A stretch of DNA of 62,476 nt, taken from contig JAVBOV010000040.1 of the NCBI GenBank assembly GCA_031550205.1, positions 1-62,476 of the forward strand. Direction: 5' to 3'. Source of the stretch: Alphaproteobacteria bacterium. Lineage in GTDB: Bacteria > Pseudomonadota > Alphaproteobacteria > RF32 > CAG-239. Positions 15,982-33,021 of this stretch are shown piece after piece (positions within the stretch are counted from its first letter, which is position 1; the number at the start of each line of letters is the position of its first letter). The notes under the pieces were generated by a model. It was not told where the DNA came from. It worked only from the letters and a program-made list of their open reading frames with translations, and ran no database searches. The position numbers were made by a program, and so were the translations under genes.

Positions 15982-16088
15982 ATCAGGTGTTTAAAATACA
16001 AAAACAGGCGTGGTGCTTATAGATACACTTCACCTGTTGTGTGAATTATATGTAGCACAATTTTATTAAACTGTCAAGGAATATATTC

Positions 16089-17057
16089 CTATGTCACCTC
16101 GGTTACGGCTCTTAGGTTGCCGTCGCGGTTGATTTGGACTACTTTTAATTTGCGGCGCATTTCCTCAATGGTCTTTTTTCTATCTATGGTGGGATATGAG
16201 TGCAGAATGCGGTTGAAAAAGGCTTCATAAGCCGCTTCAGAGCTTTCGGCGTGGATGGTGGCCAGGCAGTTGTCGTGGCCGGAGCCCATCAACTCCCAAA
16301 TGGCGCCGGCGTTGCCGGTGGAGATTTCGCCGCCGATGATGGCATCAGGAGTGAAGCGCACCACCAAATCGATTATTTTGCTGTAACTTAACTGATTGGT
16401 TTGCTCGGTACGAGAAAGCACAATGTGCACGCGGTTTTTGTGCGGCACAATTAACTCGCGGGTGTCTTCAATGGTTAAAATTCTTTTGTTGATGTCTAAA
16501 ATCTTCAGCAGGTTGTTCAAAAACGTGGTCTTGCCGGTCGAGGTGGCGCCGGAAACCAAGATGTGGTCGCCGCGTTTAATGCTCAACAGCAGTCTCTCAT
16601 ATGGGTCGGTGGGGTCTTTGATGTCTTTTAGGGGGTTGATGCTGTGCAGTTTATCACCTTGTTTTAAGCCATAATCGCCAAGGCCGAAGGCAACATCGTC
16701 GGCGTGGACACGGATGGTTAAGGCCACGCCGCCGGTTAAGTCTTCCTGGTCATACATTACGTTTTTTCCGGCAATGGCTGAAAAACGGTGTTCTCCGGGG
16801 ATGGTGGCATATACTACCGGTGTTCCGGCTACCGGGTCAAAAGGAAGTTCATAGGTGTTGGCGATGATATATAGCAAATCTACCAGATATTCTTTGGTGA
16901 GTTTTTCATCCTTATACATGACCCAAGGGTAAGCGCGCTTGCCTCTTAAGCGCAGCCAGATTTGGCCGGCGCGGTTGATGGCAACCTCTTCAATGTTGTC
17001 TTGGTTGTACCAATAAGACAAGGGTCTTAAAACTGATTCCAGAACATTAAAATTCAT
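16089..17057 (-). CDS. virB11: VirB11-family T4SS ATPase
   Basis: 322 aa. Walker A GATSTGKTT, Asp box LTIEDTRE, Walker B-like AIIGGEISTG, His box LATIHAES. Last gene of the virB string. Confidence 0.9.
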   Translation of the reverse strand: MNFNVLESVLRPLSYWYNQDNIEEVAINRAGQIWLRLRGKRAYPWVMYKDEKLTKEYLVDLLYIIANTYELPFDPVAGTPVVYATIPGEHRFSAIAGKNVMYDQEDLTGGVALTIRVHADDVAFGLGDYGLKQGDKLHSINPLKDIKDPTDPYERLLLSIKRGDHILVSGATSTGKTTFLNNLLKILDINKRILTIEDTRELIVPHKNRVHIVLSRTEQTNQLSYSKIIDLVVRFTPDAIIGGEISTGNAGAIWELMGSGHDNCLATIHAESSEAAYEAFFNRILHSYPTIDRKKTIEEMRRKLKVVQINRDGNLRAVTEVT

Positions 17058-17073
17058 TTTTTAACCCCCTTTC

Positions 17074-20000
17074 TTAAAACAATTGAGGAACGCTGCCAGA
17101 TGAACCGGAAGAACCGCCAGAGGTGCCGGCTGAAGGAGCCGGACCCGAAGGAACAGTGCCTGAACTTGACGGCGCAACAGAGAACGACGGAGGAGGCGGA
17201 GGAGGCGTGCCGCCGGCACCTGACCGCTGCTGAGCTCTTTGCTGGGCGCGCTGCTGGTTCATTTGGTTGTCATCAATCAGTTGGTTGGTTCTGACCGGGT
17301 TGATGTTAGGGTCTTCAGATTCATATACAACTGATGAACCGGAATCTACGCCGCCAGAACCGCCGCCGCCGGAGTTTTCTCTTTTTCTCTTGTTGCGCAG
17401 AGCGTCGGTTTCAGAGGCAACTTCCTTGTCATCTATCAAAATATTGCGCTTTCTCATGTCTGCATCGCCGGCTTCTTTATCACGCTCAAAGTTTCTGAGC
17501 CACAAATCGACATTGGGATAAACAATGATGCGGGTGCCGGCCGGAACGTAAGTCAGCGGCTTGATGTTGGTTTTATCTTGCAGAATTTGCTCAAACACCT
17601 GGTTCATTTCATTTAAGAAATTTTGACGGGCGTCGTTGGCGGCCTGTTGTTTCGGAGATTCAATTTCCGTGCCGGAATCATCTTTCGGCGCCATCATATA
17701 TGAGGTGTAACTGGTTAAGGCTGTGGTCATAATCGGCAGAGTATATTTTTTGAACAACTGCTGGTCCAGATATCCAAGGGCGCCGCCGCGGCCCTGAGCG
17801 TCGCCGGTAATGCCCTGAAAGACAAACAACGAGCCGTCAGGACGAATTAAGCGCTCCCAAGAAATCTGCACTTTGGCAGAGTGAGAAGTGGCCTCGGTGG
17901 AAGCGGTTAAGCCGCCCAAAGTTCCAATTAAACGGCTGCCGGCCGGAATGAGAATATTGCGACCCTCTTCGGCATAAACGTTTCTCTCAACAAAAGCGGT
18001 TATCGGCGTCGGGTTGTTGCTGTCGATTGAACGGGCGATTACGGCCGGAATCGGCTTATCGGCAAAAATCATCTCGCTCATGTCAACACGCCAGGAGGAT
18101 ATGACCTTGGTAATGCCCTGTTCAGCCCAGTCTTTCTGCATGCCGTCAAAACTTTCTTTTCTGACATTGCTGCTGAGTTTGCCGACGGAAATGTTTTTGC
18201 GACGCTCTTCCTGAGCGGCAGCAAGAGCTTCGGCGCGCTGGGAATCGTATCTTTCGCCAGGGCCGAAACCACCGCCAGGGCCAAGGTTGCCGCCGGGACC
18301 GGTGCCGGTGCCATAAGCGCCGCCGCGGCCGAATGTTCCGGCAGGAATAAACATATCTCCGCCGCCGGATTTTTGACTCTCTTCAATGCCGATTAAGGCG
18401 CCGTCATCGTTCATTATTAAACCATCGGGCATTTTTTTGCCAAGATATTGTCCAGACTTATCAAAGACGCGGCCGTCTTCAAAGATATCTCCGAGATATT
18501 CTCCATCAGGAGTTAAGGCTATGCCGAAAGATTTTCCGGCTTTTTCTTTTATATCTTTGTCAACCACGCCGACTTCGGGAAGTTTTTTGTCTCTGGCTTT
18601 GGGCGCTTCAACCTTTTCATACCAGTCCACGCCTATGCCGCCGATGATGTCGCCGTTGGCAGAAACCACTGTGCCGTCGGCCTGCAGAAGGCCTATAATC
18701 TCTCCGTCTTCGTTAACAACCGAATTGTTGGCGCCGACATAGCCTATGACATCGCCCTTTTCATCATAAACTTTTTGGCGGTCTAAAGTTAAATTGTAAT
18801 ATTGCAAAGGTTTGGCCGCCGCCACAACATTGCCGTTGGCGTCGCTGATAATGCCCTCTTTATCAACTTCGCCAAGGGGCTGATTATCAAGGTTTAAGAG
18901 AACTCCGTTTAAGCCGAGCTCACCAACGATGATGCCGGCATCATCGCGAATATAATAATCGCGATTGCCGCGGCCGAGCAGCGCAAAACTTTTATCCACC
19001 AAGAAACCGCGGTCAAGCCTGCCCATGTTTTTGCCGTCAAAACTCAGAATGCTGCCGTCTTTGGCTATGTAAGCAATTGCATCTCCACCTTGGTTGTAAA
19101 TGTAAAAGTCATATAAGGCGTAGCCGATTTTTTGATTATCAGAGACAATATAACCATCAAAGCGAAGACTGCCGACGTCTTCTCCCTTATCATTAAGCAC
19201 GCGGCCTTCTTCGGTGACGCGGCCCAGATATGCATTGTTATTATCAAAAGCAACGCCGTATTGAAGCGCTGCGCCCAAAGGCATGCCGGTTTTGGAGTTG
19301 ACACCCAAACCGGGCTGGAGATAGCCGATGGATTCATTGTCTTCATCAACAACCGAACCGTCGGATAAAATTTTGCCGATGATTTCTCCGTTAAAATTTA
19401 TTACCGGAGATTGTCTGACCGCAGCGCCAATGACAACCCCGGAAGAGTTTACAAGCTGCTCGCGCTTGTTGAGACAGCCCAGATCTTCTCCGCTATAGTT
19501 GATGATTTTGCCGACGGCATTGGCCGCGCCTAAAACATTGCCGTTATAATCAACCACATTGGCATATGAAACTCCGTAGCCGACGATTGTGCCTAAGTCA
19601 GAGACTGCCTGATTATTTTGCAACGGTCTGCCTTGAGAAACGTTTTTATAATTTCTGATGCTGCCGTCCGGGCTTAAGACGCCCAAAAATTCGCAGCCGC
19701 CGTTTAGAAAAACTTTTTTCTCCGCAAGCCTGCCAATAAGCTCATTGTTGTTGCTTAAAACCTGATTTTTATCTGCAATTTTGCCGACTAAAGACTGGTT
19801 GGCATCAATGATGGAAGCGTCAGAATCTTCAGTCCCGACAAAGTTGCCGAGAACATTTATGGCTAGCGAAGGAAAATGCGCAATATCTAAGGTGCCGAGA
19901 AGGCGGTTTCTTTCATCTAAAACCGCACCAGACTGGGTTATTTTGCCTGGCAGTGCAACGCCTTCTTTGTTCAGCAAAGCGCCATTGGGAGAGAGATAGG

Positions 20001-21336
20001 CGACTTCCGCTCCGGCAGAATTGCGCACCGCACCCAGAGGCAAAAGAGCGCCGGAAAGACTGCCGTCGGCAGAAAAAGCATAATCCAGCGGAGAGGCGCT
20101 GATATCTTCAAACGAGGCATTAATGCCGATTATGCCTAAAATGTTATCGGCATTGTTAACAACCAATTGATTATCAGACATTGAAGAACCGATAATGCGA
20201 CCTTTGCTGTAGGCAACGTTTCTTTTCATATATCCCGAAATCGGGCCGTCTAACAAAACCACACCGCCGCTTTTGAGGGCGTGAGCGAACAATTTTCCCC
20301 TGTAATCAAAGACCGGTCCGGAGTTTATGATTTGGCCGATTATTTTTCCGGAGGCGTCAACTATGTTTCCGTTAACCCCCAAGCGGCCGACAATATCTCT
20401 GGCTTTGGCGATCTCACCGTTGGGCATGATGCGGCCCAAATATTTGCCGTCGATGTCCGTTGCCGCGGCGGAGATGTCCACCGAATATCCGATGAAATTT
20501 CCGTTCAGGTCAGATATTCTGCCGTCGGGACGAATGCGTCCGATAATTTTATTTTTATCGACAACCTCTCCGTTATAGGTGACAAAACCGAGATATTTTC
20601 CCTGGTAATCAAAAGCATAACCGGAACTGACAATTTTGCCGATGATGGAGCCGGCTTCATTATAAGCGTAGCCGTTGGCCTTGATAAAGCCTATGCGCTC
20701 CGCATTAAAGTCCGTTACATTGCCGCCGGGAGAAACGCTGCCGATAAAATCTCCCTGCAGCGATACAACCATTTTGGAGGAGATTAAGCGGCCGTCTAAA
20801 ACATATTCAGAGCCGATTTTGCGATAAGCGTAACCATCCATGGAAATGAAACCGATTTTTTGCCCGGCAAGATTGGTGTAGCTGCCGTCGCCGGTTAAGC
20901 GGCCCACGGTTTTTCCTTCATCGGAATAAACCAAGCCGGGAAACAAAACCGAGCCGATAACGTTAAAATAATCGTCAACCACAAGACCATTCGGCAGAAC
21001 CCGGCCGGCAACCTTGCCGGAAGCCAAACGAACAGAACCGTCGTTACTGACTTTGCCAATGAAGGCGTTATCGGTGCCGACGACCACACCCTGAGGGATT
21101 ACTCCGCCAAGAAGCTCCCCTTTAGAGCCAATGATTAAGCTGTCGGCGGTAACATTGCCAACCAATTGATTGTCGAAACTGACAACTTTACCGTCCGGAA
21201 TTACCTTGCCCAAAAGGTCTCCGTTAAAATCAACCGCCGTAATTTCCTCCGCCAAAGCCGGAGCCGGGGCAACAAAGCAAAGCAAAGCCAAACTCAGGGC
21301 TTTGATAAGGAAACTATGTGCTTTATAAAAATTCAA
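17074..21336 (-). CDS. virB10: Repeat-expanded VirB10/TrbI-family T4SS core protein (1420 aa)
   Basis: N-terminal hydrophobic segment ALSLALLCFVAPAPALA. From about aa 30 to 1000, degenerate 17-18-aa repeats (KVIPDGKVVSFDNQLVGN, RVLPNGLVVDDYFNVIGS, IRPDGRISDLNGNFIGY). Gly-rich hinge. TrbI/VirB10 core at about 17500..18100 (MIFADKPIPAVIARSID, ILIPAGSRLIG, ISWERLIRPDG, YVPAGTRIIVYPNVDL). G/S/Q/P-rich tail of about 130 aa. Confidence 0.85.
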   Translation of the reverse strand: MNFYKAHSFLIKALSLALLCFVAPAPALAEEITAVDFNGDLLGKVIPDGKVVSFDNQLVGNVTADSLIIGSKGELLGGVIPQGVVVGTDNAFIGKVSNDGSVRLASGKVAGRVLPNGLVVDDYFNVIGSVLFPGLVYSDEGKTVGRLTGDGSYTNLAGQKIGFISMDGYAYRKIGSEYVLDGRLISSKMVVSLQGDFIGSVSPGGNVTDFNAERIGFIKANGYAYNEAGSIIGKIVSSGYAFDYQGKYLGFVTYNGEVVDKNKIIGRIRPDGRISDLNGNFIGYSVDISAAATDIDGKYLGRIMPNGEIAKARDIVGRLGVNGNIVDASGKIIGQIINSGPVFDYRGKLFAHALKSGGVVLLDGPISGYMKRNVAYSKGRIIGSSMSDNQLVVNNADNILGIIGINASFEDISASPLDYAFSADGSLSGALLPLGAVRNSAGAEVAYLSPNGALLNKEGVALPGKITQSGAVLDERNRLLGTLDIAHFPSLAINVLGNFVGTEDSDASIIDANQSLVGKIADKNQVLSNNNELIGRLAEKKVFLNGGCEFLGVLSPDGSIRNYKNVSQGRPLQNNQAVSDLGTIVGYGVSYANVVDYNGNVLGAANAVGKIINYSGEDLGCLNKREQLVNSSGVVIGAAVRQSPVINFNGEIIGKILSDGSVVDEDNESIGYLQPGLGVNSKTGMPLGAALQYGVAFDNNNAYLGRVTEEGRVLNDKGEDVGSLRFDGYIVSDNQKIGYALYDFYIYNQGGDAIAYIAKDGSILSFDGKNMGRLDRGFLVDKSFALLGRGNRDYYIRDDAGIIVGELGLNGVLLNLDNQPLGEVDKEGIISDANGNVVAAAKPLQYYNLTLDRQKVYDEKGDVIGYVGANNSVVNEDGEIIGLLQADGTVVSANGDIIGGIGVDWYEKVEAPKARDKKLPEVGVVDKDIKEKAGKSFGIALTPDGEYLGDIFEDGRVFDKSGQYLGKKMPDGLIMNDDGALIGIEESQKSGGGDMFIPAGTFGRGGAYGTGTGPGGNLGPGGGFGPGERYDSQRAEALAAAQEERRKNISVGKLSSNVRKESFDGMQKDWAEQGITKVISSWRVDMSEMIFADKPIPAVIARSIDSNNPTPITAFVERNVYAEEGRNILIPAGSRLIGTLGGLTASTEATSHSAKVQISWERLIRPDGSLFVFQGITGDAQGRGGALGYLDQQLFKKYTLPIMTTALTSYTSYMMAPKDDSGTEIESPKQQAANDARQNFLNEMNQVFEQILQDKTNIKPLTYVPAGTRIIVYPNVDLWLRNFERDKEAGDADMRKRNILIDDKEVASETDALRNKRKRENSGGGGSGGVDSGSSVVYESEDPNINPVRTNQLIDDNQMNQQRAQQRAQQRSGAGGTPPPPPPSFSVAPSSSGTVPSGPAPSAGTSGGSSGSSGSVPQLF

Positions 21337-21339
21337 AAT

Positions 21340-24300
21340 TTAGTTCCTTCTGTTTTTTGCCACTTCCTGCAAAGCATAGCCCGCAACTTTTTTATCTAAG
21401 TTAATGAACGAGCCGTTGCTTTTGATGTACCCGATATCTTGGCCGGAAGGGCTGATGACCCTGGCGGCGTGGTTTAATCTGCCGATGTATTGACCTTCGC
21501 TGCCCAAAACCGCAGTGCCGATTTTATAAACACGACCCAAGATATTTTCAGCATCGTCCACAGCCAAATCTCCGGTAAGGACGCGGCCGAAGACATCTTT
21601 ATCTTTGCCAGAGATTTTACCACCAAAATCAACGTAGCCTACAACTTTGTCAGAGTTATCAATAACTATATCTCCGCTTAAAACTTCACCCATAAGTTTG
21701 CCGGCAGTGCTTAAAACATTGCCGTCGGACAGAACTTTTCCGACAACAATATTGCCGGCATCTATCACCTGGCCGCCGGGTTTTACAGCAGCAACAACAT
21801 TGCCGGAATAATCAACCACTGCACCGCGCTTCAAAAGGCTTAAGTTCTTGTCGGTGGAGCCGCCGGGCAAAATTGCCGAAATACTGTCGTTTTTGAGGTC
21901 TAAAATATCTCCCAGTGCGTTCATGCGGGCTTTATAATTGCCCAAGATGTCCACCAAAATTCCTTCTTTTATAATCTCACCAATGACATTGCCGCGGTTA
22001 TCCAAGACTTTGCCGTCGGATGTTGTTTTGCCCTGCTGTTTGCCGTCCAAATCTATTACTCTGCCGTCAAAAAGACTATGACCGAGATATGAGCCGTCAT
22101 AACCGATGGCAACGCCTTTAGGAGCTATGGCGCCGCGATATTCTCCACGGTTGTCGATGAACATTCCCTTGGAATCTATTTGGCCGAAGACCTCTCCAAA
22201 GCGACTGATGACCGAAGAACCGTAAGAAACCCTGCCGATGCTGCTGCCGAAGAAATCCACAACTTCTCCTTTTTGAGAAGGAATGCCTAAGATGCCGCCA
22301 TAAAAGTTCAGACCATCTCCGGATATTTTGCCGATTGACAAGCCTTTGTCATTATAAACTTCTCCGTCGGGAAACAGGCGCCCCATTATATTGCCGGCAG
22401 CGTTGACAATTGTCGTTGCAGGATTTAATACCACGCCGATGATATTATTGTTATCATCCGCCACCAGATTGTTGGCAAACAATTTGGCATCTTTTTGGCC
22501 AGATATGGAAACTTTGCCGTTTTCTCCGACCACATTTAAGAAGTTGCCGTCCATATCATAGGCATATATTGCCTCCTGGTAATGCCCAAGATATCCGCCG
22601 CTGCGGTCAAAGACATCGCCGTAAATGCCGACGCAGCCGACCGGCAGCATGGCTCCGGAAATTACCAAGTTATCTTCGCTGATTTTGCCCAGATAATCTC
22701 CGTCGTAAGAAACCGCAACGCCTTTTTTGGCAACAGCGCCGATGATATTGCCTTTTTCATCTAAAACCGAGCCGTCGGGGTTTAAACAGCCGAGATAGTT
22801 GTTGGCGGTGCCTCTGACCACGCCGTCGGTGCCGGCTTCGCCCAGATAACGGCAGCTGTCGTCAAAAACCTTGCCGGTCTTAACCACTTCACCAACATAG
22901 GTGCTGGTGTTGTCAAGGACTGTGCCGTCGGGCATAATTTTTAAGTTTGTATCGGCGTTGGCTTTTCTGATTTTGCCGTCTGTTTCAAGATAGCCCAGGT
23001 TTTTACAGCCATATCCAACCACCAGGCCGCCAGGCTGCAAACGAGCAATTACTTTTGAACCTGAAACATCCTTGACCAAACCGGAGGAAAGAATGCGGCC
23101 AATCACCTGCTTTTCCGAATTTTCGATGCTGCCGTTGTTAGCTATGACGCCAAGCACTTCTCCCTTAGGAGTGATGGGGATTAAGGTGGTGTCAACCAGC
23201 GAGCCTATTTTTTTGCGGATATTGCTGATGACATTGCCATCCTTGTCCACAAAGCCGATCTGTACGCCGTCGGCGTTAAACACTTTACCGGAAGCATCGG
23301 CATAACCGATTAATCTGCCGTCTTTATCGTAAACCAAGCTAACCAGTTCTCCGGCCTTGCCGATGATGTTGCCATTGGCGTCCACCAAAGTTCCATCTTC
23401 AAGCATGCGGCCGATAATGTTGCCGTTGAAGTCAACCACGTTGCCGTTTTCATCAATATAACCGATGACGTTGCCGTCTTTATCATATGCCAGGCGGCGT
23501 TCCGCGCCCGGAGCACCTAAAACTTCATCAACCACAACGTTGCCGTCTTCGTTAACAAAACCGACGGTTTTGCCGTTAGAGTCAACCACCGCTCCGTTGG
23601 GCATTACAACTCCAAGCATATTGCCGTTGTCGTCTATGGCCACGCGGCCCGGCTTGGTAACAGAACCGATGGGGTTGCCCTTTAAGTCCACCACCGTGCC
23701 GTCGGAGAGCATGCGTCCGATGATATTGCCGTTGGCATCAACCACAGTGCCGTCGGGCAGAACGCGGCCAATGATGCTGCCGTCTTTGTCATAAACATAA
23801 CCGGCATCAACAGCGCGGCCGATGACATTGCCGCCATTATCTACTACCGTGCCGTCAGGCAAAACACGGCCGATGATATTGCCGTCCTTATCAACCACCG
23901 TGCCGTCGGGGTTGACATAACCTATAACATTGCCAAATTCATCATAAACCAAACGGCGATTGTCGGCCACACCGATGATGTTGCCCTTGTCGTCCACCAC
24001 CATATCCGAGGCATTAACTCTGCCGATTAAGTTTCCGCCGGGGTCTTTGACATAGCCCTCTTCATCGGCCAGACCGATGACTCCTCCGTCGGGGCCGACG
24101 GCTCTTCTCAAGCTTTGAGTGTCTTTGGGCTCAGCACCGACCGGAGCTGAGGCTTCACAATAGTTGCAGTCTTCACGGCGGATGGCGTTGCCTTCAACCG
24201 GAATTTTTTCAGATTTGGCATTGGCTTTGGTGAGGTTGGACTCATGCCAAGAGACAATGAAGTTATTTTGAACATTGCCGGCAATAACCGGAGCCCAAGA

Positions 24301-24756
24301 CATGGTAATGTGGCAGGTTTGCTCTCCTCTCAGTTCTTTGCCGGTGCAGCTGTCTTCAAAAACAAAGCCGTCGGCCGGAGGGTCTGCCAGTTCAACCGAA
24401 ACAACCCGAATGGTCTTTTTGCCGTTGGTGCCGACGGTTAAAACATTTTTGGCATCGGTGCCTAAGACCACCTGCCCCATGGGAACGGGGTTCGGAGTTG
24501 TGGTAATCGGTTTTTCAGCTTCTTCAACGGTTGTAAATTCAACGTTATCCGTAAGCGCGTTTTGGCGGCCGATGTTTAAAGCGTCATCATTATCGGTAAA
24601 AACCGGCTCTTGATAATCATCGGTATTGCCGCCGCTGGAAATCAACAGATAAAGGCCCAAAAGAAAGATTATAAGAGAAGTAATACCAACCGCCAAGATA
24701 ATGCGGTTGGTTTTCTTCACATAGGTTTCGGAATGTGTTAAGTTTTCTTTGCTCAT
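21340..24756 (-). CDS. Bitopic 1138-aa protein made mostly of the same 17-residue repeat as VirB10; no canonical VirB counterpart
   Basis: One TM (IILAVGITSLIIFLLGLYLLI). Possible Ig/ASH-like module (VVLGTDAKNVLTVGTNGKKTIRVVSVELADPPADGFVFEDSCTGKELRGEQTCHITMSWAPV). Then about 900 aa of repeats such as VLPDGTVVDNGGNVIGR, VLPDGTVVDANGNIIGR and MLEDGTLVDANGNIIGK. Its start overlaps the virB9 stop by 4 nt and its stop lies 4 nt before virB10. Confidence 0.75.
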   Translation of the reverse strand: MSKENLTHSETYVKKTNRIILAVGITSLIIFLLGLYLLISSGGNTDDYQEPVFTDNDDALNIGRQNALTDNVEFTTVEEAEKPITTTPNPVPMGQVVLGTDAKNVLTVGTNGKKTIRVVSVELADPPADGFVFEDSCTGKELRGEQTCHITMSWAPVIAGNVQNNFIVSWHESNLTKANAKSEKIPVEGNAIRREDCNYCEASAPVGAEPKDTQSLRRAVGPDGGVIGLADEEGYVKDPGGNLIGRVNASDMVVDDKGNIIGVADNRRLVYDEFGNVIGYVNPDGTVVDKDGNIIGRVLPDGTVVDNGGNVIGRAVDAGYVYDKDGSIIGRVLPDGTVVDANGNIIGRMLSDGTVVDLKGNPIGSVTKPGRVAIDDNGNMLGVVMPNGAVVDSNGKTVGFVNEDGNVVVDEVLGAPGAERRLAYDKDGNVIGYIDENGNVVDFNGNIIGRMLEDGTLVDANGNIIGKAGELVSLVYDKDGRLIGYADASGKVFNADGVQIGFVDKDGNVISNIRKKIGSLVDTTLIPITPKGEVLGVIANNGSIENSEKQVIGRILSSGLVKDVSGSKVIARLQPGGLVVGYGCKNLGYLETDGKIRKANADTNLKIMPDGTVLDNTSTYVGEVVKTGKVFDDSCRYLGEAGTDGVVRGTANNYLGCLNPDGSVLDEKGNIIGAVAKKGVAVSYDGDYLGKISEDNLVISGAMLPVGCVGIYGDVFDRSGGYLGHYQEAIYAYDMDGNFLNVVGENGKVSISGQKDAKLFANNLVADDNNNIIGVVLNPATTIVNAAGNIMGRLFPDGEVYNDKGLSIGKISGDGLNFYGGILGIPSQKGEVVDFFGSSIGRVSYGSSVISRFGEVFGQIDSKGMFIDNRGEYRGAIAPKGVAIGYDGSYLGHSLFDGRVIDLDGKQQGKTTSDGKVLDNRGNVIGEIIKEGILVDILGNYKARMNALGDILDLKNDSISAILPGGSTDKNLSLLKRGAVVDYSGNVVAAVKPGGQVIDAGNIVVGKVLSDGNVLSTAGKLMGEVLSGDIVIDNSDKVVGYVDFGGKISGKDKDVFGRVLTGDLAVDDAENILGRVYKIGTAVLGSEGQYIGRLNHAARVISPSGQDIGYIKSNGSFINLDKKVAGYALQEVAKNRRN

Positions 24757-26378
24757 TGCGTCCTAACTACACTACAAAAAATTCCGTTGCGGCCCAAGCG
24801 AGAGCAGATGTTGTCTCCGGTTTCAAGGCTGTCTACCGGACCAACTCTTAAGTGGAACAGTTCTTTGCCCTGACCGTCGGCCGGAGTATCCACCGAGAAG
24901 AAAGGATCATATACATTCAGTTCCTGATATTTTCCGGAAAGATTATCCCAAAGAGATTCCAATTTTTCAACATCGGCATCCGTGCCGAGTTCTATGGATA
25001 TATTGGCCGATCCGCCTTCAGTAAACCCGGAGCCGTAGCCATAACCGTTTAACGCCCTTTGAGCATCAGGATTATATCTGTTGGTGTTTTTGATGTTGGT
25101 CATTTTGGAATAGTCAAAACCCGCATCAGTGCCGGAGTGTCCGGAGACATAACCGCCGGGAGCGGCAGTGCCGGAACCGGTTGAAACCTTGGCCGGAGGA
25201 ATATGACTTACGCCGCCCTGCTCATAGCCCGCCGATAAATCTCGGCCGGCGCCACGGTCGGCTCTATCAAAGCCGGAACCTTCGCGGTAACCCTGATTGT
25301 AAGGGACATCGCCGTTGGGAAGAGGCGGAGGCACATCCCATGACGGAGACATGGTTTTGCCGGCATAAGAGATGTTTTCAAGACCGACATCATCCGAGCG
25401 GCGCATTTTAAGACAAATAATGCGCTTGCCGTTTTTCATTACCATATCACCGACGCCCTCAACAATAATCAGACGATTATTGGGACCCTTGGTGCGGAAA
25501 CCGACCGGAACTTCAATTCTTTCAACAATCAATGTAACAATCGGACGCTGAGTCATGTTTAAGGCTTTTTCACCCAAATCGATATAGGTGAAAATATCAT
25601 CTCTCCAGACACGTTCCGGAGCAATAATTACGTCGTCGGGGTTTGGAATGTAAACCTCTATATCAAACCTGAATTTGGTCGGATCCATGGGAATGGTTTT
25701 CAGCCAGTCGTTTTTTTGGAAGCGTCTGGTGTAAGTGGAATCTACCGATTTAGGAGAATTAAAATTTTGCGGAGAGCCGCCTCCGGCACGGCTTGCTCTG
25801 CCGCTGCCGCCGGAAGCTTTGTCTTCATCCTGCGGAGCATCTATGACCTCAATATCGATAATTGAATTGGTCAGTCTTTCAGTGTTAACGCCTTCGCTTT
25901 TGGCATAAAAAACATAACGGTTGCCGGAGCGTCCGAAAACGATGATGTTGGTGTCAACGCCGACATTGGAGCCTTTGCGGGGATATAACAAAAGAGTGTT
26001 GGGACCTGAAATCTGACCGTCAAAAGTTGCGTTATCACCGATAAAGATATCTTCAATGAGCTCCCAGTCGGGAAAATTGATTAAGGTTATCATGCCTTCA
26101 CGCAGACGAACCGGCAGAACCAAATCCGGAGACCAATAATATTTGGAATATGCCGGCTTGGTTTGACCTTCTCCCAAATTTTGCAGCGGGTCAAGCCAGG
26201 CGCTTTGAACCATGCCCAGAGAATTGAACCCGGCGTAGCCCAAATTCATCGGCGTATATTGACCTTGGGTTTGATCGGCATTTTGATCAAGGCTGCCCAT
26301 GGTTGCCTGAGAATATGCTCTGGAGCTTATTACCAAAAGCAGAAGAAGAGAAAATATTTTTAACAACCTTAAAGTCAT
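24753..26378 (-). CDS. virB9: VirB9/CagX-family T4SS outer-membrane core protein with a C-terminal SPOR-like domain
   Basis: 541 aa. Signal peptide LLLLLVISSRAYS. VirB9-like N-domain (LPVRLREGMITLINFPDWELIEDIFIGDNATFDG..TNIIVFGRSGNRYVFYAKS). G/S-rich linker. Last ~85 aa (about 24756..25010) read ISIELGTDADVEKLESLWDNLSGKYQEL..KELFHLRVGPVDSLETGDNICSRLGRNGIFCSVV, a SPOR pattern. Confidence 0.8.
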   Translation of the reverse strand: MTLRLLKIFSLLLLLVISSRAYSQATMGSLDQNADQTQGQYTPMNLGYAGFNSLGMVQSAWLDPLQNLGEGQTKPAYSKYYWSPDLVLPVRLREGMITLINFPDWELIEDIFIGDNATFDGQISGPNTLLLYPRKGSNVGVDTNIIVFGRSGNRYVFYAKSEGVNTERLTNSIIDIEVIDAPQDEDKASGGSGRASRAGGGSPQNFNSPKSVDSTYTRRFQKNDWLKTIPMDPTKFRFDIEVYIPNPDDVIIAPERVWRDDIFTYIDLGEKALNMTQRPIVTLIVERIEVPVGFRTKGPNNRLIIVEGVGDMVMKNGKRIICLKMRRSDDVGLENISYAGKTMSPSWDVPPPLPNGDVPYNQGYREGSGFDRADRGAGRDLSAGYEQGGVSHIPPAKVSTGSGTAAPGGYVSGHSGTDAGFDYSKMTNIKNTNRYNPDAQRALNGYGYGSGFTEGGSANISIELGTDADVEKLESLWDNLSGKYQELNVYDPFFSVDTPADGQGKELFHLRVGPVDSLETGDNICSRLGRNGIFCSVVRTQ

Positions 26379-26391
26379 AATCTAATGCACC

Positions 26392-27111
26392 TTATTTTAT
26401 CTTGTTATGAGTTAAAGAATATTGAGCTACGGTAAAACCTATGGGGTTTTTCAGCCTTTCGCCGTATTTTACGGTTTTAGACTGGTAAGCAATGCGCATG
26501 GAAGCGGTCCAATAATTGACCTCGGGAGCAGTGGAGGAGGGAAACATGTCCTGAGTTTCATATTCAACCTGCCACAAGCCGCGGCCAAGCTCATTAACCG
26601 TGAGGATACGGACGTTTCTGACCAGACTTCTGGCTCTGATTATGTCTAAAGCCTTGTAAGCGGTTCTATCCAAAAACTCTTGATAAACCGAGCTTGAAGA
26701 CATTTCCTGAATGGGGCCGCCGGGCATCCAGCGGGCCTGCATCTCTGAGATGTCCTGATCAAAAGAGCTTCTGAGCAAAACATATTCTCTGACAAAAACC
26801 TCGGTAATGGCTTTTTCATCAATGATATTGCCGCGAACCGGCTTAATGGAATATACCTGCTCCTGCTTGTTTTGAAAGGTGAGCAGAAACGGCTCTAAGC
26901 GGTATAGCGGAACAACCTGAGTAATGGCAAGCAGCAAAACCACGTTGCAGCAAAGACTGATGGCGGTGATAATGGCGAATGCTCTGGCTGTCCAAAGATA
27001 TCTTTTTTCAGCAAGATTGGCCACAAAAGCATCTGACGCACTCCGAGAAGCGGCACTGCTGCCGGTAAGAAGCTTTTGCCCGATATTTGCCTGTCTGATT
27101 TGTTTTGCCAT
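26392..27111 (-). CDS. virB8: VirB8-family T4SS protein, copy 1
   Basis: 239 aa. N-terminal TM (FAIITAISLCCNVVLLLAI), a periplasmic domain, and the conserved C-terminal NPxG motif (RLKNPIGFTVAQYS). Confidence 0.85.
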   Translation of the reverse strand: MAKQIRQANIGQKLLTGSSAASRSASDAFVANLAEKRYLWTARAFAIITAISLCCNVVLLLAITQVVPLYRLEPFLLTFQNKQEQVYSIKPVRGNIIDEKAITEVFVREYVLLRSSFDQDISEMQARWMPGGPIQEMSSSSVYQEFLDRTAYKALDIIRARSLVRNVRILTVNELGRGLWQVEYETQDMFPSSTAPEVNYWTASMRIAYQSKTVKYGERLKNPIGFTVAQYSLTHNKIK

Positions 27112-27127
27112 TCAACCCACTTTCCAA

Positions 27128-27322
27128 CTAAATTGCCGCAACAAACCAATCGGGCAGATTCTTGGGCAAATCCAAGTGCATGCAGGCGCAAGGAGAAAGC
27201 TTTAATTCGTCCACACCCTTGCCAACGCCTACGGGTTCAGCCTCGTAATAAGAGCCGAACACGCCGCAACCGGCCAAAAACAACAAAAACAGAAATAAAA
27301 CAAACTTTTTATCCATATCCAA
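27128..27322 (-). CDS. virB7: Small lipoprotein, VirB7-like by position
   Basis: 64 aa. Lipobox FLLFLAGC. Lies between two virB8 genes as described for rvhB7. DLPKNLPDW loosely resembles the VirB7 P-[ILV]-N-K motif. Confidence 0.45.
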   Translation of the reverse strand: MDMDKKFVLFLFLLFLAGCGVFGSYYEAEPVGVGKGVDELKLSPCACMHLDLPKNLPDWFVAAI

Positions 27323-28242: not shown

Positions 28243-31200
28243 CTAGTAGGCTGCACAGTAAGGTTTTTCAAACTTTTTAATTTGCTTTTCAAGTTCCTCT
28301 TCCGCTTTCTTGCGCTGAGCACCGGCAACTTCGCGGTTGACTCTTTCAGAAACAATTTCTTCATCAAGTTCGGAGCCGGAAGAGACGTTGGTACTTAAGG
28401 TTATAAGTTCGTCCTTGTCTTTTTGCAGGGCAAGAAAAATATTCTGCAGCAGGGCAACTCTTTCCAAAACCAGCTCTCCGCCGCCGTCTCCGGCTTCCTT
28501 AAGCACAGACGAGGCCAGAGATACTTTTTCGTTTTTCTTGCTTTCAAGCTGTTTTTTTATCTTGTCATAATCTTCAGCCTTGGCAAGGTCAAAATTACGG
28601 TCGATAGTAACACCCACATTGGCCAGAGCCTCTACCAGAGTATCTTTAATGTCTTCAATATTAATGGCAAGTTCGTCGCGAGCCTGTTTCAAATCTCGCT
28701 CGCGGTCAACAAAGTTTAAGAAATTGCCGATTTGATTGCGGTCAAACTTGGAGCGGCGGAGAAGAGCGTCTTCCGTTGTTTTCTTATATGAAGTTTCCTG
28801 CTTGGAAAGTTCTCCCGCAACATATTCAAGACGGGCAAAAATATCAACCACGTTCTTTCTCAGCTTTATGCCATTGATGCCATAGTCTAAAAATACGCCA
28901 AGCTCGCTGGTGTTGGCGGCCAAATCTCCGCCCTTATATTCTGAATTTTTGAACAATATTTTATAATCTATGCCTGCGGACGCGTCTGCGCGGCCGGATG
29001 TTTCGTCTTCAGGGTCAAAAACATTATAATTGTGCGTTTGCTGAATTTTGCCGTTTACAACTACCGGCGCAATAAACGGTTCACCGACCACAATGTTTTG
29101 ACAATCAGTATAGGCGTTGGAAACAACCGAGTTGGTCACCAGATAATTTTTGGTTAAAGGATTGGCGATAACCGTATGTTTGTTGTTGTTGCAAGGATAG
29201 GTGCCGCCGTCTAAGAAGCTCATTTCCTCACCGCCCAGGGTCAGAAGTTTTTTGAGGTCAACCTCTTGCTCAACAAAAGCGTCTTTGGCCAGAACTCTCT
29301 TCCAGATTTCAGGCATTTTGCCGCCGATATCCAAGAAATATTCCGAAATGGTATAACCGTCTTCAAAACCATATTTAGCTTGAATGATGTTGCCGTAATC
29401 ATTTTCATCAAAGTGGAAGACCTCTCTTAACGGAGGGAGATAATCTGACGGGGCTGATTTCGGCGCTTTAAGGTCTCTGGCCTTGCCGCCGTAGCCGATG
29501 TAATATTCAAAATCTGCCTCCAAGCAGGCGTCTTTGGCGCAGGCAACGGAAGTTAAGAACTGCTGATATACCAAAGAAACAGACTGAACAACAGCCGGAG
29601 CCGCCGACAAACCGCTTAAGCCTTTAATGCCGGTAAGCGGCAGATTTTGCAAATCAGTCATCAGTTTTTGATGTCTTTGCAGCACTTTGGCGTGCCCGCT
29701 TGAAACATAGATATCGTCTCCCATGGCAAGGATATCCGCTTTTGTCTGTTCAATAAGCTCCTGAGCTCTTTTCTGAGCCTCGGTGGTGAGCATTTCAGCT
29801 TCCGAAATGTAAGAGGTTATTTGGCTGCTTATGCCGGCAAATGAGCCTAAGTCAAGGTTGGCCATGGCCAGCATTTTCTCATTTCCTTTTTGTGTAACGG
29901 CAGAAGAAGCGGATAATAATCCCTGATATTTTTCAACTTCCTGTTCATAAACTTTTTTGGCGGCGGCAAGGCCCTGCTCGTAGTCTTTAATGAGAGGCAG
30001 GCGGTCTTTAACGGTGCGGCTTAACAGGTCTTTGGCATATCCTCTTGCTCTTAACATCTGCTCGGCATATGAAGCCTCAACTTCCTTATGGCTTTTAATA
30101 TATTCTTTTTTAACGGCCTCAATATCCTTCTCGGTCTTTTGAATGGCCTCTTCAATGAGCTTTACTTTGGCTTTTTCAGCAGCAACCAATTCTCTGATTT
30201 GAGCAACGTTTTTGCCGGCAAAAGCCGCCACGGCAAGGCTGATTTCTTTTTGCAGCTTGGATTCCGTTAAGAAAGCGCTTTCTTCAGGGGTGATAAACTC
30301 ACGGGAATATTCTTCGGTTTGATAAGTGGTAACAACGGTCTCTTCTTCTTTTTGAGGAGCATCTTTTTGTATTTCCTGAGTTTGATATTCCACAATCGTC
30401 GGCTGCGCAGGGGCGGTTTTTATCGGTGCTTCAACCGCTATTTCCACGATTTTTTCTTCAGTAACGGTGAGTTCAGAGGGGCCTTTTTCTTCGGTGGTAA
30501 TCTCAAAAACCTTATCGGCCGGAACCCCTTGGGCAAAGGCCAATGTTTCAAGATAAGAATGTTTTTCAGGCTCCGCATTTTCAGGCTGCTGAATCGGGGT
30601 CAGACTATCCGGCTGTTCTTCAATGAAATCTTCAAGGCTTTGAACCGGCGCAGCATTTTCAATAACCAGTTCCTCCGTGCTGATTTTAATGTCTCCGGGG
30701 GTAAGTTCCTGTTTAATTTCAGTGGTGGTGGTTTGGTAAATTTTCGGTTTTTCAGGGGCTGTTTCCGCCGGAGCAATAACCTCACGATGAGTGGTGGTAA
30801 CAACGGTTTCAGCGCCATCTATTTTTGTTTCAACAACAGTTTCTTTTTCAAAATCCACAACGTTTTTAACAATCACCGCTCTGTCTTCAACTTCGCCCTG
30901 ATATTCATTAATATCCTTGATTTGAGACGCCATGTCCTGAGCTTCAAGAGTTGATTCCTGAATGCGGCCTTCAAGTTCGTTAATTTTTATGTTGTATTCA
31001 TTTATAAGCTTGGCGATGCCGTCTAACTGCTGATTTAGGTTTTTCTTGCGGGCATTAAGCGGGGTGAGCTTATTGTTCATGGCAGATTTTGCCTGCGCAA
31101 AGGCCTGGTCTCTTGAGCCTTTGCCAAGATTAAAGCTGCCTTCGGCATCGGCCAAGTCTTTGGCGGCGGCATCCTGTTCGACTTTGAGGGTTTTCTGCAA

Positions 31201-33021
31201 ATTATCATCAAAACGTCTCAACTCGTCTTGGCCGATTTTTTCCTGCATTTCCGCTTCATAAATTTCTTTTAAGCGCTTTTCTGCGGCCAGAGATTCCTGA
31301 TATGCTTTTTCATTTTTATTCTTCTTGTATTGGGCGGTTTTTTGAACCTGGTCATAATATTTATCAAATAATATTTCTTTTTGTTTGGCATATTCGGCAG
31401 GAGCCAGATTAGCCAAAGATTTGGAACGGTCTTCCGAACCAAGGCCCAAACTTTCGCGTTTTTCGGCAATAAAGGCATCGGCCATAGATGCAACGATTTT
31501 AATTGCGCCGGCTTTTAAATCAGCCCTTGCAATATAGTCTTTAATATTTTCATATTTGCCTTCAATATATTGATTATAAAAACTTTTCTGGTCGTTCCAG
31601 ATGGGATATTTTTTCTTCAAGCCGCCCCACTGAGGCGAATTTGAATATTGGTCTTGAGCCAGAAAGCTGAAGGCTTCGGCGCCGATTTCCCAAGAAAGTA
31701 AGTTAGTTTGGCGGTCTATTTGGCCAATCTCATCTTCCGAGCTGGGGCTCAGCAAACCGCCGGTGTCTATTTTGACATTGGAATTGGCGGCATATTCGTT
31801 GCCGGTGTCGGCTTTGATAATTCCGGTATAATCAACCTCGGCCAGGTCTTGTGCGGAAACAGAGTTGGAAAGTTCGGCTTTGGCCGTATCATAAGCCTTA
31901 ATTGCCCAGCCGGAGATGCCGCCGCGCAGCTGGTGGGCGCTTACCTGAGCGTTTAAATCTCTGCCGGCCCAGACCTTGTTCGGGTCGGAATAATATTGTC
32001 CAAGATGGCGGATGGCGCACCCGCTTGAAAGCTGCAGGGCTTTAATGGAGGTTTCATGCATTCTGACATAGCGGTCATATGAAACAAAGGAATCTTGAAA
32101 AGAAGGCATGGACTGGAGCAGATTATGAATTTCTATGGCTTCCATGGCCTGATTATAAACGGGGTCAAGCTTGGCCAGCCTTTCAAGCTCATCGCGGTTG
32201 GCGGCATATGGAGAATCAAGACCGGAATCCGGAGCCTCAACAAATTCTACAATTCTTTTGGCAAAGGCAACGGTTTCCGACGAGCGGTAACTGCCGGTCT
32301 TTTGGGCGGATGGAGCCTCTTCGGGAAGAATATTCATCATCGCTTTGGCTGCTTCATATTGGGCTTTCAAAGCTTCAAATTCTTCATAAACCTTGAGCAG
32401 CTGTTCATATGAGACCTCGGCATTATATGCGTTGGTCCAGACGCCGTTGACGTTGTCTCCCTGCTCAGCGCCCTGCTCCGTGTCTCTAAAGCCGTCATTT
32501 AACTTGTTTTCAATTCCTTTGAGCCGTTCTTCAAGTTTTCGGGAAGAAACATAAACCTCCATTAAGGTATCTTGATAAAACTCACGACGCTTGGCGGCAT
32601 ATGCGGCCTGCTCTTCGGCCGTGGAGCCTGGATATTGCATGAAGAGTTCATATATGCCGTTTTTAACCGAATTATAATCTTGATTATCTATGTCTTTGCA
32701 TTCCTCTATGGTACGGGTGCCGGGTACCGGTTTTTCAAGCTCTTGGCCTAAGGCAGACTGCTCGGAAAATTCCGGAAGATAGCCTTCTTTCAAGGCTTTT
32801 TGAGCACTTAAGGCATCTTGTTTTATCTCGTTGACTTTGGATTGAACTTTGCGTTTTTTGGCAGTTACATCGTTTATTTTTTTCAAAACGTTATTCGGAA
32901 TATCCGTGGTGATATCAAACGGCATTGGCGGAAACATCAGGGTTTGAGCGCTTTGCGGAGCAAGCACTGAAAACAGAGCGGCAGCCGAGAGAGATAAAAA
33001 TATGGATTTAAGTTTTCTCAT
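28243..33021 (-). CDS. Giant secreted coiled-coil protein (1592 aa), unknown function, inside the T4SS operon
   Basis: Signal peptide SLSAAALFSVLAPQSAQT. Long heptad-like K/E/A/Q-rich stretches. A central E/T/V/P-rich region. A Cys-containing globular region near the C-terminus. Shares the ETLAFAQGVPA motif with 34798..36018. 4-nt overlap with the upstream gene. Confidence 0.6.
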   Translation of the reverse strand: MRKLKSIFLSLSAAALFSVLAPQSAQTLMFPPMPFDITTDIPNNVLKKINDVTAKKRKVQSKVNEIKQDALSAQKALKEGYLPEFSEQSALGQELEKPVPGTRTIEECKDIDNQDYNSVKNGIYELFMQYPGSTAEEQAAYAAKRREFYQDTLMEVYVSSRKLEERLKGIENKLNDGFRDTEQGAEQGDNVNGVWTNAYNAEVSYEQLLKVYEEFEALKAQYEAAKAMMNILPEEAPSAQKTGSYRSSETVAFAKRIVEFVEAPDSGLDSPYAANRDELERLAKLDPVYNQAMEAIEIHNLLQSMPSFQDSFVSYDRYVRMHETSIKALQLSSGCAIRHLGQYYSDPNKVWAGRDLNAQVSAHQLRGGISGWAIKAYDTAKAELSNSVSAQDLAEVDYTGIIKADTGNEYAANSNVKIDTGGLLSPSSEDEIGQIDRQTNLLSWEIGAEAFSFLAQDQYSNSPQWGGLKKKYPIWNDQKSFYNQYIEGKYENIKDYIARADLKAGAIKIVASMADAFIAEKRESLGLGSEDRSKSLANLAPAEYAKQKEILFDKYYDQVQKTAQYKKNKNEKAYQESLAAEKRLKEIYEAEMQEKIGQDELRRFDDNLQKTLKVEQDAAAKDLADAEGSFNLGKGSRDQAFAQAKSAMNNKLTPLNARKKNLNQQLDGIAKLINEYNIKINELEGRIQESTLEAQDMASQIKDINEYQGEVEDRAVIVKNVVDFEKETVVETKIDGAETVVTTTHREVIAPAETAPEKPKIYQTTTTEIKQELTPGDIKISTEELVIENAAPVQSLEDFIEEQPDSLTPIQQPENAEPEKHSYLETLAFAQGVPADKVFEITTEEKGPSELTVTEEKIVEIAVEAPIKTAPAQPTIVEYQTQEIQKDAPQKEEETVVTTYQTEEYSREFITPEESAFLTESKLQKEISLAVAAFAGKNVAQIRELVAAEKAKVKLIEEAIQKTEKDIEAVKKEYIKSHKEVEASYAEQMLRARGYAKDLLSRTVKDRLPLIKDYEQGLAAAKKVYEQEVEKYQGLLSASSAVTQKGNEKMLAMANLDLGSFAGISSQITSYISEAEMLTTEAQKRAQELIEQTKADILAMGDDIYVSSGHAKVLQRHQKLMTDLQNLPLTGIKGLSGLSAAPAVVQSVSLVYQQFLTSVACAKDACLEADFEYYIGYGGKARDLKAPKSAPSDYLPPLREVFHFDENDYGNIIQAKYGFEDGYTISEYFLDIGGKMPEIWKRVLAKDAFVEQEVDLKKLLTLGGEEMSFLDGGTYPCNNNKHTVIANPLTKNYLVTNSVVSNAYTDCQNIVVGEPFIAPVVVNGKIQQTHNYNVFDPEDETSGRADASAGIDYKILFKNSEYKGGDLAANTSELGVFLDYGINGIKLRKNVVDIFARLEYVAGELSKQETSYKKTTEDALLRRSKFDRNQIGNFLNFVDRERDLKQARDELAINIEDIKDTLVEALANVGVTIDRNFDLAKAEDYDKIKKQLESKKNEKVSLASSVLKEAGDGGGELVLERVALLQNIFLALQKDKDELITLSTNVSSGSELDEEIVSERVNREVAGAQRKKAEEELEKQIKKFEKPYCAAY

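Follow-up and report, generated by a model that had tools for sequence, protein, structure and literature searches.

In textbooks, VirB10 figures as the "energy sensor" of type IV secretion, a protein that spans the cell envelope. It is the subunit of the type IV secretion system (T4SS) that is thought to bridge both membranes as a single chain and to relay conformational signals, driven by ATP, from motors in the inner membrane to the gate in the outer membrane. Canonical members of the VirB10/TrbI family (PF03743), such as A. tumefaciens VirB10, pKM101 TraF, R388 TrwE and H. pylori ComB10, share a plan in which a short cytoplasmic N-terminal tail leads through one transmembrane (TM) helix into a periplasmic spacer, with the TrbI barrel at the C-terminus, and their genes occupy the slot between virB9 and virB11. 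The family is also defined by contacts with VirB9 and VirB7 in the outer-membrane core and with the ATPases of the inner membrane. Here we analyze a 62,476-nucleotide (nt) stretch of DNA from an alphaproteobacterium of the RF32 clade (contig JAVBOV010000040.1, positions 1 to 62,476; hereafter, the window), in which this slot holds two genes: a 1138-amino-acid (aa) open reading frame (ORF), which we call X, and a downstream gene that encodes the TrbI barrel. The canonical plan is matched by the two genes jointly, and X is very probably the N-terminal half of a VirB10 encoded as two coupled genes.

Compared with canonical VirB10, the plan is spread here over two polypeptides, with the barrel half carrying its own signal peptide; the proline-rich spacer is replaced by ~110 β-hairpin repeats and an ASH domain; and the total length is ~2500 aa, against 377-590 aa in three outgroup proteins. 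Other VirB10 proteins have been expanded by repeats: CagY by helical ones that undergo recombination at the DNA level, DotG by pentapeptides. In both CagY (H. pylori Cag) and DotG (Legionella Dot/Icm), the VirB10 C-terminal domain follows a very large, length-variable repeat region (PMC6761968). The protein described here is likewise repeat-expanded and variable in length, X ranging from 1088 to 3151 aa between species. However, CagY and DotG are single chains with unrelated repeats, whereas here the protein is split and its repeats are β-flower hairpins with almost no DNA-level identity. The β-flower families PF21784 and PF21785 comprise small proteins or domains of ~96 aa with no known function (Durairaj et al. 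2023, PMC10584680). Their fold consists of β-hairpins in closed 4-, 5- or 6-fold rings. The X array carries their [DNEQ]xxG hairpin-tip motif (PMC10584680) but departs from the published examples in that ~54 hairpins in X and ~57 in the downstream protein are strung inside a secretion-system subunit. In the literature, we found no description of a split VirB10, a β-flower VirB10 or a T4SS of this clade.

ORF X and the downstream virB10 gene

The two genes, the second of which encodes what we call the B10 half, comprise the following features:

21340-24756, minus strand: ORF X, 1138 aa, ATG start; probable membrane-anchored N-terminal half of a split giant VirB10
24712..24756, minus strand: cytoplasmic tail of X, aa 1-15, whose conserved motif reads (S/T)xSExY(V/I)KK(T/S)NR
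24628..24711, minus strand: single TM helix of X, aa 16-43, with a Kyte-Doolittle peak of 2.66 (19-aa window) and an AlphaFold2 helix at 9-39
24178..24510, minus strand: periplasmic ASH/PapD-like β-sandwich of X, aa 83-193, from AlphaFold2 and Foldseek, with invariant C137 and C148
21364..24108, minus strand: array of ~54 β-hairpin repeats of X, aa 217-1131, β-flower/DUF3659 type
21345..21350, minus strand: Shine-Dalgarno (SD) site GAAGGA for virB10, inside X codons R1136-R1137-N1138
17074-21336, minus strand: virB10 C-terminal half, 1420 aa, TTG start, with TrbI (PF03743)
21250..21336, minus strand: predicted Sec signal peptide of the B10 half, aa 1-29, MNFYKAHSFLIKALSLALLCFVAPAPALA then EEITAVDFNG

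Hydropathy and the AlphaFold2 helix give X a bitopic layout, with a short cytoplasmic N-terminal tail, one TM helix and the remainder in the periplasm, and the three canonical VirB10 outgroups have an N-terminal layout equal to it. Within the tail motif, Y12 and K15 are invariant and T7, E10 and T16 are at least 90% conserved across 66 sequences, and hydropathy identifies a TM segment in all 65 X orthologues. AlphaFold2, run on the first 220 aa with a 66-sequence alignment, returned a helix (8-41), a disordered linker and a β-sandwich (84-192), the last with a predicted local distance difference test score (pLDDT) above 90. In a Foldseek search of this sandwich against the PDB, the top folds came from HYDIN (PapD-like domain, 2e6j, E 9e-7) and CEP192 (ASH domain, 6fvi, E 1.2e-6), both with a probability of 1.00 and template-modelling scores of 0.62-0.69 on the target (0.69 for HYDIN). 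At the sequence level, the matches to Pfam ASH (PF15780; E 4.7e-4, 20.7 bits against a cut-off of 27) and NCBIfam choice-of-anchor D (E 3.7e-5, 24.2 bits against a cut-off of 45) are sub-threshold. The two cysteines of FVFEDSCTGKELRGEQTCHITMSWAP (C137 and C148) are invariant across the 66 sequences, and W154, P156 and a GNVQNNF motif are invariant or nearly so.

The array that follows has a dominant spacing of 17 aa and exceeds the gathering thresholds of the β-flower clan (CL0395) for both Bflower_2 (PF21785; E 4e-65, seven stretches, 217 bits against a cut-off of 38) and Bflower (PF21784; E 1e-19, 71 bits against a cut-off of 25); it also matches DUF3659 (E 5e-26). A full-length AlphaFold2 model of X, built from a 27-sequence alignment, has a mean pLDDT of 81.6 and a predicted template-modelling score of 0.71, with only short strand pairs beyond the sandwich. 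When this model was searched against the PDB, the ASH domain alone matched (array template-modelling score at most 0.1), and a sequence search with the array gave no solved-structure match. RHS/YD repeats were considered and rejected: the whole-protein matches (E 2e-11 for RHS_repeat and 4.6e-12 for YD_repeat_2x) include no single stretch that passes, and the β-flower matches are stronger. Hydropathy, AlphaFold2, Foldseek and Pfam thus agree with an earlier note on this DNA, which had read X as a bitopic protein with an ASH-type sandwich, two cysteines and a repeat array. Its phrase "VirB10-like topology without the TrbI barrel" is also apt, as X alone has no match to TrbI (PF03743) and the domain lies in the downstream ORF. 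Judged from its single-gene relatives, X is a member of the VirB10/TrbI family solely as a putative fragment of the ancestral gene.

The B10 half consists, in order, of a signal peptide, hairpin repeats, a glycine-rich linker, the TrbI barrel and a low-complexity tail ending in LF. TrbI matches at aa 1090-1280 (E 1.9e-34), NCBIfam ComB10/VirB10 domains match as well, and the ~57 hairpins upstream of the barrel are of the same repeat type as those of X (Bflower_2, E 2.7e-53). Where the cytoplasmic tail and long TM helix of a canonical VirB10 would stand, this protein begins with a signal peptide comprising basic residues and a hydrophobic core of ~12-14 aa, followed by the conserved mature end xEITAIDFNG. 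Across 60 B10 orthologues, position -1 is alanine in 58 and position -3 is alanine or valine in 53, a pattern that suggests a cleavable Sec signal peptide.

A scan of one genome per species yielded 68 loci in metagenome-assembled genomes (MAGs) labeled uncultured Alphaproteobacteria, which were recovered from the guts of humans, ruminants, chickens, rabbits and other hosts. The N-terminal module of X is present in 65 of these loci, in the order B8-B9-X-B10-B11 wherever flanks exist, so that X sits between virB9 and virB11, the operon position of the VirB10 family. It is an intact ORF (1088-3151 aa) in all 65, neither lost nor pseudogenised in any relative of the split clade. As to length, X varies threefold, whereas the B10 half is mostly ~1400-1580 aa (L041-L064 versus L001-L040), and array expansion is concentrated in X, the inner-membrane half. 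Some MAG labels ("Azospirillum", "Rhodospirillales" and "Rickettsiales") are wrong.

The most distant locus of the scan, L067, has no separate X. Its X/virB10 slot holds a single 2274-aa ORF that runs from an X-like tail, TM helix and ASH module through repeats to a TrbI barrel and a tail ending in ...SRLF. At least 18 more distant relatives encode the whole VirB10 architecture in one gene of 1930-2411 aa. In a search of 1.84 billion representative proteins (50%-identity cluster representatives) with a profile of the X N-terminal module, all full-module matches of at least 1930 aa are single-chain (P0058, P0062, P0079, P0093, P0101, P0107 and P0121), and the shorter ones are orthologues of X or fragments. 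With the N-terminal module of L067 as query, a word-indexed search returned 12 proteins of 2112-2411 aa (L067's own protein, P0058 and ten further relatives), all 12 of which carry precomputed PF03743 and Bflower domains. The fused proteins start with SSSEQYxKKSNR, which is the X tail motif, and have a TM helix at the N-terminus, no internal signal peptide and no internal stop; only two contain an extra hydrophobic stretch, which is single, short and weak. Around P0158 and P0058 (L074 and L075), the gene order is virB8, a 59-aa gene, virB8, virB9 (with a SPOR domain), giant virB10 and virB11. The single-gene β-flower VirB10s of these sister gut Alphaproteobacteria (for example, L067/P0001, P0058, P0062 and P0158) share the motif, TM helix, ASH module, array, barrel and ...LF tail with the split pair, and differ from it in being one ORF of 1930-2411 aa where the clade of the window has two genes.

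Because of these single-gene outgroup relatives, and because the downstream half lacks the canonical anchor, we read X and the annotated "VirB10" as one VirB10: X alone supplies the cytoplasmic motif, membrane anchor and ASH module, and the B10 half alone supplies the barrel. The earlier note had counted X as an extra gene lying between virB9 and virB10, a description that does not fit outgroups in which the N-terminal module, repeats and TrbI are encoded as one protein. Its suggestion of a partner that co-assembles with VirB10 survives insofar as the two halves must cooperate, but X would be half of VirB10 itself.

Origin of the split and competing explanations

To place the split, we used a maximum-likelihood tree of the TrbI region from 60 split, 18 fused and three canonical VirB10 outgroup sequences, the last from a Microvirga plasmid, Sinorhizobium pSymB and an IncN plasmid (377-590 aa). 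The outgroup plasmids have the order virB9-virB10-virB11, and their VirB10s are single chains anchored at the N-terminus. The split sequences form one clade (Shimodaira-Hasegawa-like approximate likelihood ratio test, SH-aLRT, 100), and the fused forms fall in three basal lineages. Because one change explains this pattern and the outgroups are single-chain, the parsimonious reading of the sequences would be that virB10 was split once, in the ancestor of the clade to which the window belongs.

The two arrays bear on how the split may have come about. Between the X and virB10 arrays, blastn gives a single match of 107 nt at 69%, which rules out recent duplication or gene conversion. At the protein level, the arrays are 26% identical over ~1000 aa (E 2e-51), and any duplication must therefore be ancient. 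Whole-profile hhalign aligns X to residues 1-1126 of the fused proteins and the B10 half to residues 363-2246 with large gaps; this overlap would put some of the array into both halves and would fit duplication followed by reciprocal loss. In segment alignments, the first 230 aa of the B10 half slightly favor fused residues 363-583 (score 259 versus 229), the best and second-best placements differ by ~10-15%, and the whole-profile diagonals are not reproduced. A cysteine spacing of 51/22/51 links X 584-708 to fused 519-643, which fits N-anchored collinearity of X only. End hidden Markov models, 120-aa sliding BLAST windows and hhalign segments gave no unique position for the split point in the fused proteins because the array is too self-similar. 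A clean cut and duplication with reciprocal loss are both possible routes. The latter is attractive in that a clean cut needs a simultaneous export signal for the distal half, which is an argument rather than evidence. The partial duplication of virB10 envisaged in the earlier note thus stands as one of two possible routes, and the data do not separate it from simple fission.

A different use of the same homology would make X an accessory paralogue, derived from a partial virB10 duplication and working beside a self-sufficient VirB10 with an uncleaved signal anchor, in the manner of a DotF-like partner. The homologous arrays are compatible with such an origin, as is the placement of the first 230 aa of the B10 half on a fused segment that collinear X also covers. 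That placement is weakly preferred, however, and other segments are not collinear. Moreover, the motif, long TM helix and ASH module of the single-gene VirB10s are found in X only and never in the B10 half, and the signal peptide of the latter, which is short in its hydrophobic region and has an AxA site in 60 of 60 split loci, is typical of cleaved signal peptides. We consider an accessory paralogue unlikely.

Less probable still is a role for X outside the secretion machine, as an adhesin-like or cell-wall-binding repeat protein whose gene is merely co-located with the T4SS operon. Domains of the ASH/choice-of-anchor-D type are common in giant surface proteins, but the N-terminus of X is a membrane anchor with no signal peptide for release, its position and coupling in the operon are invariant in 60+ species, and its entire N-terminal module is physically part of VirB10 in the outgroups.

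The gene junctions and a proposed assembly

The gene virB9 ends in ...ACG CAA TGA, and the ATG of X lies within ATGA, giving a 4-nt overlap that is retained in most relatives. X ends in AGA AGG AAC TAA, and virB10 starts with TTG after the letters ATT, so that 3 nt separate stop and start (a coordinate difference of 4). The sequence thus bears out the ORF boundaries, the 4-nt overlap and the 4-nt distance to virB10, as a coordinate difference, that the earlier note had given, and agrees with the tight coupling described there. The C-terminus of X reads ...EVA(K/Q)NRR(N/D) in 59 of the 60 split loci, with codons that are nearly always CGG AGG AAY (AGA AGG AAC in the window), and virB10 starts with TTG, GTG or ATG at most ~4 nt from the X stop in nearly all 60. 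A strong SD site inside X together with a weak virB10 start suggests that the two genes are translated in a coupled manner and at matched dosage. Across orthologues, identity is 74% over the last 38 aa of X, a conservation that is partly due to the embedded SD site; it is 64-74% over the first ~200 aa of mature B10, on par with the barrel, and 26-48% in the interior of the B10 array.

The least probable explanation, that X and virB10 are made as one polypeptide by read-through or frameshifting or that the stop is a sequencing error, was rejected, for although the two ORFs of the window are in the same frame and only TAA ATT apart, the reading frames differ in 52 of the 60 split loci and all three stop codons occur, so that neither read-through nor sequencing error can explain the split, and in addition every species has, immediately after the junction, a signal peptide that in a read-through product would be an internal hydrophobic segment and invert the topology, the SD site and start codon are conserved at the junction, and a DNA contig confirms the X stop. 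This Logan contig, probably from the same sample as the window, crosses the X/virB10 junction without mismatch. Because the arrangement also recurs in 60+ independently assembled MAGs and the DNA identity between X and virB10 is scant, it is not an assembly artefact; we found no sign of the misassembly that the earlier note had raised.

We propose that VirB10 gained ~100 periplasmic β-flower hairpins in the stretch that links its anchor in the inner membrane to its TrbI barrel in the outer membrane, and that in the ancestor of the window's clade the giant virB10 became two genes. X would have retained the cytoplasmic tail, TM helix, ASH-type sandwich and initial part of the array, and the downstream gene the remaining array and the barrel, with a new Sec signal peptide for its own export. 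The final codons of X would act as the ribosome-binding site for the weak TTG or GTG start and so yield matched amounts of both halves. The exported B10 half may then be cleaved and join VirB9 in the outer-membrane core, with X remaining in the inner membrane. In the periplasm, the two halves would come together again by non-covalent contacts between their hairpin arrays, with the conserved split ends as the likeliest site, and this docking would restore the bridge between inner and outer membranes that canonical VirB10 forms as a single chain.

We give non-covalent docking of X and B10 through their arrays a chance not far short of even; docking at the new ends is supported because the split ends are more conserved than the interior of the B10 array. 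Somewhat more tentative is the fuller picture of VirB10 as two docked proteins, with X arrays rising from the inner membrane and B10 arrays descending from the outer-membrane cap to form a new periplasmic β-flower superstructure. If true, the covalent continuity of VirB10 would be dispensable, and β-flower repeats would have their first cellular role. Stable in at least 60 species and with single-gene sister lineages that serve as controls, the split is a natural experiment on the need for the covalent link and on how two halves can dock. The reading of X as half of VirB10 locates the recently named β-flower fold inside a defined machine and provides proper names for genes annotated as "DUF3659 domain-containing protein", the NCBI name of the X orthologues, in widespread gut Alphaproteobacteria.

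Metatranscriptome contigs match parts of X, B10, B9, B8 and B11 without mismatch (window 16000-27200); those on X cover 21755-22104, 22419-22688 and 23139-23476 with zero mismatches. The matching DNA and metatranscriptome runs are labeled invertebrate gut metagenome, whereas most relatives come from vertebrate guts.

Several points weigh against a VirB10 encoded in two coupled halves. The RNA contigs may include DNA carry-over, and the source organism is uncultured. Cleavage of the B10 signal peptide is predicted by sequence rules alone, and the re-association of X with B10 is something that we infer. Genomic context covers three of the 18 fused proteins, all three in the virB9-virB11 slot. 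Finally, the base of the TrbI tree is a polytomy, and the direction of change (fission rather than fusion) follows from outgroup parsimony without a species tree.

The operon and further observations

The T4SS operon of the window lies on the minus strand, with a gene order read from the ORF list and Pfam matches. Apart from X and virB10, it contains the following:

41087-41617, minus strand: virB2, the first named gene of the operon
38910-41063, minus strand: 717-aa ORF between virB2 and virB4, without a Pfam match at E 0.001
36080-38512, minus strand: virB4
after virB4, minus strand: four exported ORFs without Pfam matches
between the exported ORFs and virB9, minus strand: two virB8 genes
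24753-26378, minus strand: virB9, with CagX (E 5e-11) and, at the C-terminus, a SPOR-like domain; overlaps the start of X at its stop codon
16089-17057, minus strand: virB11 ATPase, the final gene of the operon (T2SSE, E 3.4e-21)

Two large genes of the operon, the 717-aa ORF and a 1592-aa ORF ahead of virB8 (28243-33021, minus strand), match nothing in Pfam at E 0.001. VirB11 is 65-91% identical to its counterparts in the related loci. The SPOR-like C-terminal domain of VirB9 (24753-25010, minus strand) has a Pfam E-value of 3.7e-4 in the window and is "weak" in relatives. It occurs in split and single-gene lineages alike (L074 8182-9909; L075 8190-9917) and is therefore older than the split.

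The tail that follows the VirB10 barrel (17074-17496, minus strand) is of low complexity and ~140 aa long. It ends in Leu-Phe in the window (...VPQLF) and in 15 of 18 single-gene relatives (...SRLF, ...GRLF or ...PELF); of the others, two end in ...RMF or ...GQIF and one is truncated (sequences examined besides the window: L067, P0058, P0062, P0079 and P0153-P0162). The C-terminal aromatic residue is reminiscent of outer-membrane protein signals. At the other end of the protein, several B10 signal peptides (L041, L051, L053 and L054) start with K-x-N/K-x-(I/L)-I-L, similar to KKTNRIIL of the X TM segment. This likeness, seen by eye over a short hydrophobic stretch (in the window, 21250-21336 compared with 24628-24720, minus strand), may be what is left of a duplicated 5' end.

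The profile of the X N-terminal module matches 3980 proteins, mostly through the ASH-like sandwich alone; giant proteins, the longest of 6901 aa, carry as many as 35 of these sandwiches in tandem (for example, P0002-P0004 and P0015). Weak matches to the array (25-27% identity, L069-L073) come from Clostridia, Lachnospiraceae, Roseburia and Lysobacter genomes; β-flower/DUF3659 repeats are therefore widespread beyond T4SS contexts.

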